Shown here one piece after another: positions 27,299-28,841 of a stretch of 32,000 nucleotides of DNA. Location of the stretch: the NCBI GenBank assembly GCA_000775715.1, contig JRWQ01000001.1, positions 510,225 through 542,224 on the forward strand. Reading direction: 5' to 3'. The DNA comes from Vibrio tubiashii (GTDB lineage Bacteria > Pseudomonadota > Gammaproteobacteria > Enterobacterales > Vibrionaceae). The stretch's first letter is position 1. Every line of letters begins with the position of its first letter. A program made the translations under genes and the position numbers. The notes under the pieces are model-generated. The model searched no databases. It was not told the DNA's origin and saw only the letters and a list, made by a program, of their open reading frames with translations.

Positions 27299-27314
27299 AG
27301 CAGGGGACGTGCCA
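27299..27314 (-). promoter_or_regulatory. sigma54 (-24/-12) promoter of phnD operon: TGGCACGTCCCCTGCT
   Basis: The reverse complement of 27299-27314 gives TGGCACG-N4-CTGCT, against the consensus TGGCACG-N4-TTGCW. The GG and GC are correctly spaced. The -12 element is ~48 nt upstream of the phnD ATG. Confidence 0.7.
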
Positions 27315-27373
27315 ATTATTTTAATTATTATTTTCAATAACTTACTCTACATACCACTCTCTTAGATTTCATT

Positions 27374-27388
27374 TGGGTCATTTCTGTC
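27374..27388. promoter_or_regulatory. Motif copy 1: TGGGTCATTTCTGTC (candidate enhancer/UAS)
   Basis: Part of an 18-nt perfect direct repeat (27371-27388 = 27405-27422). It starts exactly 59 nt beyond the -24 element of the phnD promoter. Confidence 0.55.
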
Positions 27389-27407
27389 TAGCTGATGTGA
27401 TTCTATT

Positions 27408-27422
27408 TGGGTCATTTCTGTC
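27408..27422. promoter_or_regulatory. Motif copy 2: TGGGTCATTTCTGTC (candidate enhancer/UAS)
   Basis: Second copy, 34 bp from copy 1. With its flank it reads TGGGTCA-N4-TGTCCCA, an imperfect dyad. Confidence 0.55.
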
Positions 27423-27439
27423 CCAGTACCTTTGATGCT

Positions 27440-27462
27440 CAAAAAAGGGCTCGAAAGCCCTT
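27440..27462 (-). terminator. Rho-independent terminator after the GDPD gene
   Basis: The minus-strand RNA reads AAGGGCU-UUCG-AGCCCUU followed by UUUUGAG, ~40 nt after the stop at 27504. Confidence 0.8.
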
Positions 27463-27503
27463 ATATTATTTCGAAAAACATACGCGCTGAGACGTTGGTT
27501 CCT

Positions 27504-28715
27504 TTAGATATCCATACAGTTAGCGTAGTAAGTCACGGTAGAAGGCCAATCACTGAACACGCCCAGCACTCCAACATCTTGTGCCAAAACATCAAGTACG
27601 TTCATCATGTCACCATCTTGATTGATCTGTTCAGTCACCGTTTGATAGTACCAACCACCACCTTGCGCAAGCGGCCCTGAACGCTCCAACGTCCAAGCAA
27701 TAATGTCGAGATCAGCTTGTTTTGCCAGCTTGGCGTACTCAGACGCGACAATCGAATTGTTATCATCAAGCTGTATCAACGCATAAAGTGGCGGAGCGAT
27801 GATCTGCACGCCCTGTTTTGATAACGCTTTCATATTTTCTAAGGTTGCTGTGAAACCTTCTAAGTTGTACACGCGATCATCGAGATACACTGCTTGTTTG
27901 CCAAACTCAGGTTCATTGTTGATCCAGTACTTCACATCGTCGAGATTGAATGACTGAACATACGCATCTTTCGCAGAGAACCCTGCTGCTTTCAGCTCAT
28001 CAACCAGTTTCTGAGCGTACATCTCTTGGCTAAAGCCTTGATAAGGCATCTCAACTTTTGCTGACTTAAGCTCTGGAGTGACCTTTACGCCATGCTTTTT
28101 GAATAGTTCAGCACTTTCTGCATGGGTCATTAACGTACCTGTCTGCGAGTACAAATCAGTTCGCCAACCAGGTGTGCCACTCATGTACTCTTCAATAGTG
28201 GTCGCTTTCGGGTTTGCGCCATCCATTTTACCTTTAAGAGTTTTAAACTCCGCCAAAGTAAAATCAGAAGTACGGCACTCAACTTGCGCATCTTCACCCG
28301 TTTCTGGGTTAGCTGGCTTAAATGGTACCGAGCATTTCTTCGCTAGCTCTGGGTGAGCAAGAACATCCGTGGTGGTATGCAAGTCACTTTGTGAATGACG
28401 ACAGACAAGCTGTTTATCTTTAGTAAACGTAACATCGCACTCCAAAACCCCTGCCCCCATTGCAATCGCAGCCAAATAAGACTCCTTAGTATGCTCAGGA
28501 AATTGCATCGCCGCGCCGCGGTGGCCAATTGAAAAGTCACTGCGATAGAATGGGCCATCACTACAGCTTTCAAGCTTAGTTTTGAGCGGACTCTCTTCCA
28601 TATCACTCACGAGATAGATAGGGCGAGGGCCAACCTGCGCCGGTTCATTACCCGCCATGGCTATTGCGCTAACACCTAACAATAGAGCGATACTACTGGT
28701 TAAGATATGCTTCAT
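27504..28715 (-). CDS. Secreted glycerophosphodiester phosphodiesterase-family (GDPD) enzyme
   Basis: Start set to ATG 28715 (SD AAGGAGA), which gives the signal peptide [21 protein letters not shown]|G. GDPD motifs: [38 protein letters not shown] and C-terminal VFSDWP. The track start at 28853 would run through the promoter. Confidence 0.8.
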
Positions 28716-28825
28716 CTGTTGTTTCTCCTTGCAGCAAATAGTTATTAGTTTATGTCGCTCTGGCTTTATGAAGTTCTTACGCGTTAATGCAACTCCCTGA
28801 CTTCTCGCCAGAACCATAAGCAATT

Positions 28826-28841
28826 TGCACGCAACGTGCCA
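28826..28841 (-). promoter_or_regulatory. sigma54 (-24/-12) promoter of the GDPD gene: TGGCACGTTGCGTGCA
   Basis: The reverse complement of 28826-28841 gives TGGCACG-N4-GTGCA, ~110 nt upstream of ATG 28715. It shares the extended TTGGCACGT with the phnD promoter. Confidence 0.7.

Follow-up and report, generated by a model that had tools for sequence, protein, structure and literature searches.

Two probable sigma54 promoters in a phosphodiesterase and transporter module of Vibrio tubiashii

Our question was whether two sequences that resemble sigma54 (-24/-12) promoters, found in a small module of Vibrio tubiashii, are working promoters of the genes that follow them. The module lies on the minus strand of a 32,000-nucleotide (nt) stretch of contig JRWQ01000001.1, called the window below and numbered from its first letter, and it contains in minus-strand order the genes for a histidine kinase, an NtrC-type regulator and a GDPD-family phosphodiesterase, a hairpin with a T run, and the genes for a PhnD-family protein, a PhnC ATPase and two PhnE permeases. 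We conclude, with a probability of roughly 85%, that both elements are working sigma54 promoters which together form a small local regulon, one before the GDPD gene and one before the transporter genes. This estimate is built on what is established for the two sites, namely their sequences, their conservation, a fixed geometry with a second motif, the co-occurrence with regulator genes, an arrangement that is unique in the genome, and an rpoN gene.

Both elements were read directly from the minus strand, at the positions where a sequence-only reading of the window had placed them. The element of the GDPD gene is TTGGCACGTTGCGTGCA (28826..28842, read 28842..28826), with its GG at 28840-28839 and its GC at 28828-28827, and the element of the phnD/gpxB-like gene is TTGGCACGTCCCCTGCT (27299..27315, read 27315..27299), with its GG at 27313-27312 and its GC at 27301-27300. 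The offset from GG to GC is 10 nt at both sites, as that reading had said, and the distances to the start codons, which it had given as about 110 and 48 nt, are 111 nt to the ATG at 28715 and 47 nt to the ATG at 27252. The description of the sites as near-consensus holds for the core only, given that position -15 is G at the GDPD site and C at the transporter site where a T would be expected, and that the spacers are rich in G+C; the T at -14 is present at both sites. The idea that the module has no non-coding gaps other than those of the two sites had to be dropped, as there is a third gap of 102 nt between phnD and phnC (26110-26211). A longer GTG frame (27504-28853) that covers the first motif was rejected as an artefact, as the start conserved in 13 relatives is ATG 28715, which has the ribosome binding site AAGGAG and a signal peptide, and from this start the first motif is intergenic.

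The core of these elements is rare. The exact form TGGCAC-N6-TGCW occurs twice in the window, at the two sites, whereas allowing one mismatch raises the count to 7, not significantly above the 4.8 expected, so that only the exact form is informative. On both strands of the whole genome (4.14 Mb, 45% G+C) there are 28 exact matches, and the extended form TTGGCACGT-N4-TGCW is found only 3 times, two of which are the module sites. The genome's own rate of 3.4e-6 per position and strand leads to an expectation of about 0.0015 matches for the two spacers, which total roughly 440 nt, and, by our own arithmetic, to a P of about 1e-6 for finding two there, in line with the earlier judgement that two such matches are unlikely to arise by chance. 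About 16 of the 28 exact matches are outside long open reading frames, far above the non-coding share of a bacterial genome, and 6 of these intergenic matches fall, by our own count, within 3 kb of one of 15 activator genes. The genome carries rpoN (PF04552, 242 bits, G000:C4:133171-133647, within an open frame of 488 amino acids (aa)), and with the adjoining activator, the conserved cores, the co-occurrence and the fixed geometry described below this supports the proposal that the elements are sigma54 promoters.

We regard the comparison across loci as the decisive evidence that these are likely to be sigma54 promoters. The comparative set was drawn from relatives and then from one genome per species, and it gave 22 distinct loci with kinase, activator and GDPD genes, 21 of them with the transporter, including those of V. 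hepatarius, the V. splendidus group, V. chagasii, V. makurazakiensis, V. penaeicida and a bin labelled Moritella. The motif TGGCA[CT]-N6-[TA]GC[AT] is present before the GDPD gene in all 22 and before the binding-protein gene in all 21. The mean information per alignment column is 1.8 bits in the core compared to 0.8-1.1 bits in the spacer and 0.6-1.0 bits elsewhere, and the six spacer bases and the flanks vary. Among 70 GDPD loci of other taxa that lack the kinase/activator pair (GDPD orthologues at 58-72% identity) the upstream spacer is free of the motif in every case, and the sole match (locus L033) is inside the sequence coding for the signal peptide. Second GDPD copies without the regulator pair also do without the motif, both in Vibrio sp. 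S9_S30, where the copy is in the same assembly as the module, and in another strain of V. penaeicida. In one locus (L004, genome G015), for which the stretch compared does not reach the kinase gene, the transporter operon and the second motif have been lost while the activator, the GDPD gene and the first motif are kept. In another Vibrio relative (L019, genome G002) the GDPD gene is reduced to a remnant of 119 residues.

The alignments contain a second conserved element, GACAnnnATGACCCA, upstream of both promoters. At the GDPD promoter there is a single copy, GACACAATTGACCCA (28901..28915, minus strand), whose start is 74 nt ahead of the TGG and which is kept in the 22 loci, while the transporter promoter has two direct copies 34 nt apart, both GACAGAAATGACCCA on the minus strand, of which the distal (27408..27422) starts 108 nt and the proximal (27374..27388) 74 nt upstream of the TGG. 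Measured from start to start, the distance at the GDPD promoter is 74, 76 or 64 nt across the 22 loci, the 64 and 74 nt variants being one helical turn apart, and at the transporter promoter it is 108 and 74-75 nt in 20 of 21 loci; in the remaining locus (L023) the search pattern did not capture the proximal copy. The spacing between the first promoter and the GDPD start codon, in contrast, varies from 62 to 183 nt, so the upstream motif and the promoter move as a unit. The exact upstream motif occurs twice in the genome, both times here, against 0.5 expected, and the composite of this motif (up to 2 mismatches) followed after 50-140 nt by a sigma54 core is found genome-wide only at these two promoters. 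We consider GACAnnnATGACCCA a candidate enhancer, at distances that agree with the roughly 70-150 nt expected of an enhancer upstream of a sigma54 promoter.

Between the candidate enhancer copies and the -24 element of the transporter promoter there is a site resembling that of integration host factor (IHF), TTTCAATAACTTA (27332..27344, plus strand), with one mismatch to WATCAANNNNTTR. It belongs to a block, TAAgttnTTGAa, that is conserved at -30..-17 in 21 loci and is one mismatch away from the IHF consensus. Taken by itself a match to this consensus is weak evidence, as the window contains 53 of them. Some variation in these regions can be recorded here. In V. tubiashii the candidate enhancer of the GDPD gene shares bases with the stop codon of the activator gene, and in the V. 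splendidus group it is well downstream of that stop codon. In Vibrio sp. S9_S30 and V. penaeicida (L028 and L029) the transporter promoter is TGGCAC-N6-AGCA, with T at -15 and A at -14, and in these loci the candidate GDPD enhancer is one helical turn nearer, at 64 instead of 74 nt.

Several observations weigh against the sigma54 conclusion and are best considered together. On a matrix trained on 37 V. cholerae promoters that ChIP-seq and RNA-seq had confirmed (PMC3439928, Table 2) the two sites each score 9.2 bits, which is above the minimum of the training set (8.0 bits) and far below its median (16.4 bits); genome-wide they rank about 1,390 (GDPD) and 1,410 (transporter), so that some 1,400 other positions score as high or higher. 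The adjoining activator has an unusual sigma54-contact loop, ELFGHEAGSFTSA, which reads GSFTSA and not GAFTGA, a double change in which Phe-Thr is retained and positions 2 and 5 are altered. Single variants of this loop are reported to be tolerated, with S at position 2 or with D, E or H at position 5, and the GSFTSA combination is absent from the variants described (PMC4641369). Finally, a sigma70-like sequence, TTGGCA-18-TATGGT, overlaps the first site.

The low scores can be traced to the G or C at -15 and to the G+C-rich spacers. In the V. cholerae set position -15 is T in 33 of 37 promoters and G or C in none, and an A+T-rich promoter middle is stressed for the RpoN sites of that species (PMC3439928). 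With a matrix of 18-mers from 29 intergenic Salmonella ChIP-chip sites (PMC3844500, Table 3), of which 10 have no T at -15, the GDPD site scores 15.3 bits and ranks 30 in the genome, and the transporter site scores 18.3 bits and ranks 8; a 15-mer matrix that combines both sets ranks them at 168 and 73. A matrix scan of the window and the genome, which the sequence-only reading had proposed as a check, thus depends on the training set, and sequence scoring alone does not separate the two sites from background.

The same genome offers internal positive controls in two promoters that also have no T at -15, both of classes known to be sigma54-dependent in Vibrio. A Qrr small RNA (sRNA; Rfam RF00378, 73 bits) has its 5' end 12 nt past the C of the GC in TGGCACGTTATATGCA; its gene (G000:C3:34719-34841, minus strand, locus L103 520-616) is about 0.6 kb from a divergent gene with a Sigma54_activat domain, presumably luxO. 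The other control is the flavohaemoglobin gene (NF009805, 539 bits), which has TGGCACGCTTTGTGCT 46 nt before its start codon and is divergent from NorR (NF003451, 725 bits), the norR-hmp pair being at G000:C44:320825-323820 (locus L104). Like the sites under study, these LuxO-Qrr and NorR-hmp promoters have TGGCACG cores and a base other than T at -15. On the V. cholerae matrix they score 16.1 and 14.7 bits, for their spacers are A+T-rich, and by that matrix the study sites at 9.2 bits are weaker than the controls. A negative control is found inside the GDPD gene, where the antisense sequence CGGCACTCAACTTGC (28273-28287, plus strand) scores 15.6 bits and ranks 24 in the genome. It was rejected as a promoter and taken as a chance match, since synonymous changes have removed its GG even in the nearest relatives. 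That conserved and probably functional sites reach 9.2 bits and a non-conserved intragenic match 15.6 bits illustrates the limits of matrix scans.

The variant loop is conserved in the orthologues of the activator. Among the orthologues listed GSFTSA is found in 19 of 22, and the others have GSFTNA, GSFTGA or GAFTSA, each changed by one residue; the genome encodes some 15 activators of the same class, 11 of the 15 with the canonical GAFTGA. Compared by eye across species, the loop variants follow no pattern with the promoter variants.

Given these uncertainties the other possible explanations deserve attention. The roughly 1,400 positions that score as well as our sites, and the clearly accidental 15.6-bit match within the GDPD gene, would agree with both motifs being chance sequences that have no function. 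Chance would, however, have to explain why the cores are invariant over 22 loci with diverged flanks, why the geometry with the upstream motif is rigid, and why the motifs occur together with the regulator genes, while the intragenic chance match is lost even in the nearest relatives. The conservation data already contradict this explanation, and we consider it very improbable. A different possibility is that transcription depends on sigma70, using for example TTGGCA as its -35 element with a -10 element downstream, perhaps with PhoB or some other activator at the upstream motif, and that the likeness to sigma54 sites is incidental. Genes for phosphodiesterases and PhnD-type transporters are often under Pho control, and TGGGTCATTTCTGTC, which is the upstream motif read on the opposite strand, bears a loose resemblance to Pho-box half-sites. 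But the half-sites in the motif are spaced by 9 nt and not 11, and PhoB control was set aside as a search of both spacers, tolerating up to 3 mismatches, gave no Pho box (CTGTCAT-N4-CTGTCAT). The GC of the -12 element is the same at every locus but relatives do not keep the TATGGT, and for want of a conserved -10 the TTGGCA-18-TATGGT reading was rejected. Additionally, the window has 3 sigma70-like sites where shuffled sequence gives 3.6, and the upstream motif lies 74-108 nt away, as an enhancer would, and not beside a -10 element. Sigma70-dependent transcription is very unlikely to be the explanation.

It is also conceivable that the sites do bind sigma54 but answer to another activator, or that they are silent or regulatory binding sites and not promoters driven by the adjoining regulator. 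With about 15 activators of the class in the genome there are other candidates, the GSFTSA loop of the adjoining one is unusual, and sigma54 often binds where no transcription follows, as with the V. cholerae ChIP sites, of which only 37 out of 68 could be tied to regulated operons (PMC3439928). This has to be set against the occurrence of the motifs only in the company of the kinase/activator pair (22 of 22 loci against 0 of 70), the fixed distance to an upstream motif that is unique in the genome, and the orientation of both sites, which point at genes from sensible distances. We find this explanation unlikely, and sigma54 promoters under the control of the adjoining activator remain the reading we prefer.

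The genes of the module can now be described in turn. The sensor histidine kinase (HAMP, HisKA and HATPase domains by Pfam) occupies 30260..32000 on the minus strand, its 5' end being beyond the window at about 32100-32248 in window numbering, and its full frame from the longest start at about 32248 is up to 662 aa. No upstream motif or sigma54 motif precedes the kinase gene, so autoregulation is unlikely. Next comes the enhancer-binding regulator (28905..30263, minus strand) with REC (PF00072), AAA+ Sigma54_activat (PF00158, 215 bits) and HTH_8 (PF02954) domains, directly upstream of the sites, which bears out the earlier remark that a gene of this kind adjoins them. The GDPD gene (27504..28715, minus strand, Pfam PF03009) would encode a secreted protein of 403 aa with a signal peptide, which is weakly similar to GlpQ structures (E 1e-9). 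Its subfamily is unusually conserved, with 58-68% identity between Vibrio and Shewanella, Cellvibrio, Sorangium, SAR324, Anaerolineae and Desulfobulbaceae (loci L030-L099), and this suggests a tightly constrained enzyme that has spread by horizontal transfer. The gene is followed by a predicted intrinsic terminator, AAGGGCTTTCGAGCCCTT and a T run (27441..27462, minus strand), with the hairpin kept in relatives.

The PhnD-family protein (26212..27252, minus strand) matches PDB 9LF9/9LFB, the GpxB of Marinobacter, with an E of 1.3e-83. The sequence-only reading had called this gene phnD, and while the family assignment stands, the match indicates that the product is best read as a GpxB-like binding protein for glycerol-1/3-phosphate. 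Of the four ligand residues given for 9LF9 (PMC12718374), Tyr138, His199 and Arg223 are conserved, and Ser takes the place of Thr247. The genes for the ATPase (25324-26109) and for two PhnE-type permeases (24536-25336 and 23733-24536), all on the minus strand and assigned by Pfam and NCBIfam, are presumably co-transcribed from the second promoter (23733..26109), judging from the gene order and the overlapping ends. A periplasmic GDPD enzyme that frees glycerol phosphate from diesters would pair naturally with an importer of glycerol phosphate.

Together these features suggest how the module could work, and we infer the binding, the looping, the start sites, the inducing signal and the logic of weak promoters from the arrangement of the elements. 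The PgtB-like kinase would phosphorylate the adjoining NtrC-type activator, which would then bind the GACAnnnATGACCCA sites, one at the GDPD promoter and two at the transporter promoter. DNA looping, probably aided by IHF at the transporter promoter, would join the activator to the closed complex of sigma54-RNA polymerase at TGGCAC-N6-TGC, and ATP hydrolysis would open the promoter. Two transcription units are predicted, a monocistronic GDPD gene and a gpxB-like-phnC-phnE-phnE operon, and as a terminator separates them two promoters would be needed. Since the Qrr sRNA begins 12 nt after the C of the GC, we predict starts at about 28815 for the GDPD gene, with a leader of about 100 nt, and at about 27288 for the transporter operon, with a leader of about 36 nt. 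A search of both spacers returned no Rfam family at E values up to 1, and the predicted folding of the 104-nt GDPD leader is not more favourable than that of shuffled sequence (z = -0.54).

By analogy with the nifH promoter, the non-T base at -15 and the G+C-rich spacers probably weaken the formation of the closed complex. We propose that with such weak polymerase binding expression would take place only with the help of the cognate activator and of IHF, an idea that follows the general picture in which IHF raises specificity (PMC2709558). The inducing signal is probably a glycerophosphodiester or glycerol phosphate.

It is useful to compare this arrangement to known systems. With the nifH promoter of K. 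pneumoniae (NifA) and with glnAp2 (NtrC) it shares the GG/GC core with its 10-nt spacing, an activator site (here a candidate) about 75-110 nt upstream, the IHF-like site between the two at the transporter promoter, and the NtrC-type two-component activator encoded alongside. TGGCACGTCCCCTGCT may also resemble the C-rich -15 region of the nifH promoter. Unlike in those systems, GACAnnnATGACCCA is not a recognised activator site and not a clean inverted repeat, and while one promoter has a single copy of it, the other has two direct repeats. In the general sigma54 architecture the enhancer is 100-140 bp upstream with IHF binding in between (PMC2709558).

The PgtB/PgtA(/PgtC) system of Salmonella provides the closest named NCBIfam model for the kinase (PgtB, 224 bits) and one among the closest for the activator, with PgtA eighth among its matches (301 bits). 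In PgtBA, as in the circuit proposed here, a two-component system whose regulator belongs to the NtrC family induces the uptake of a three-carbon organophosphate when the substrate is present (bioRxiv 10.1101/2024.02.14.580360). However, the scores here are far below the equivalog cut-offs of 1000 for PgtB and 650 for PgtA, and there is no pgtC or pgtP in the module, the neighbours being the GDPD gene and the PhnD/C/E-type ABC importer. For pgtP itself sigma54 dependence is no more than suggested (bioRxiv 10.1101/2024.02.14.580360), and neither PgtA nor pgtP is mentioned in the study of the Salmonella sigma54 regulon (PMC3844500). The transporter genes resemble those of the GpxBACD glycerol-1/3-phosphate ABC transporter, with the same order of a PhnT-family binding protein, an ATPase and two permeases; in the passages searched, no regulator, two-component system, sigma54 control or adjoining GDPD gene is described for that transporter (PMC12718374). 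Among 299 sampled Gammaproteobacteria only 2 carry a GpxB-like gene, neither of them with an activator gene or a sigma54 motif within 1.5 kb, a sample too small to generalise from.

Very probably, then, the two elements are new members of a well-known kind of promoter, a common type of switch in a setting that had not been described. In the literature searched we found no description of how the module is regulated. A more ambitious view, which we put forward tentatively and would place a little short of even odds, is that the module represents the first regulatory circuit for importers of the GpxB type, a PgtBA-like, sigma54-dependent two-component induction of a periplasmic phosphodiesterase and an importer by their substrate, independent of Pho. 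Its promoters, which have no T at -15, would be weak by design and suited to the GSFTSA-loop activator and to a new enhancer sequence at a fixed helical phase.

The gain from this work is one of annotation and not of concept, as the kind of system is a textbook one. The map of this compact regulon, now well supported, shows two promoters, the three copies of their candidate enhancer, a probable IHF site and one terminator, and sigma54 control has been linked to a GDPD enzyme and to a GpxB-type importer of glycerol phosphate. This suggests that some vibrios may import the breakdown products of phospholipids in response to the substrate and not to phosphate starvation.

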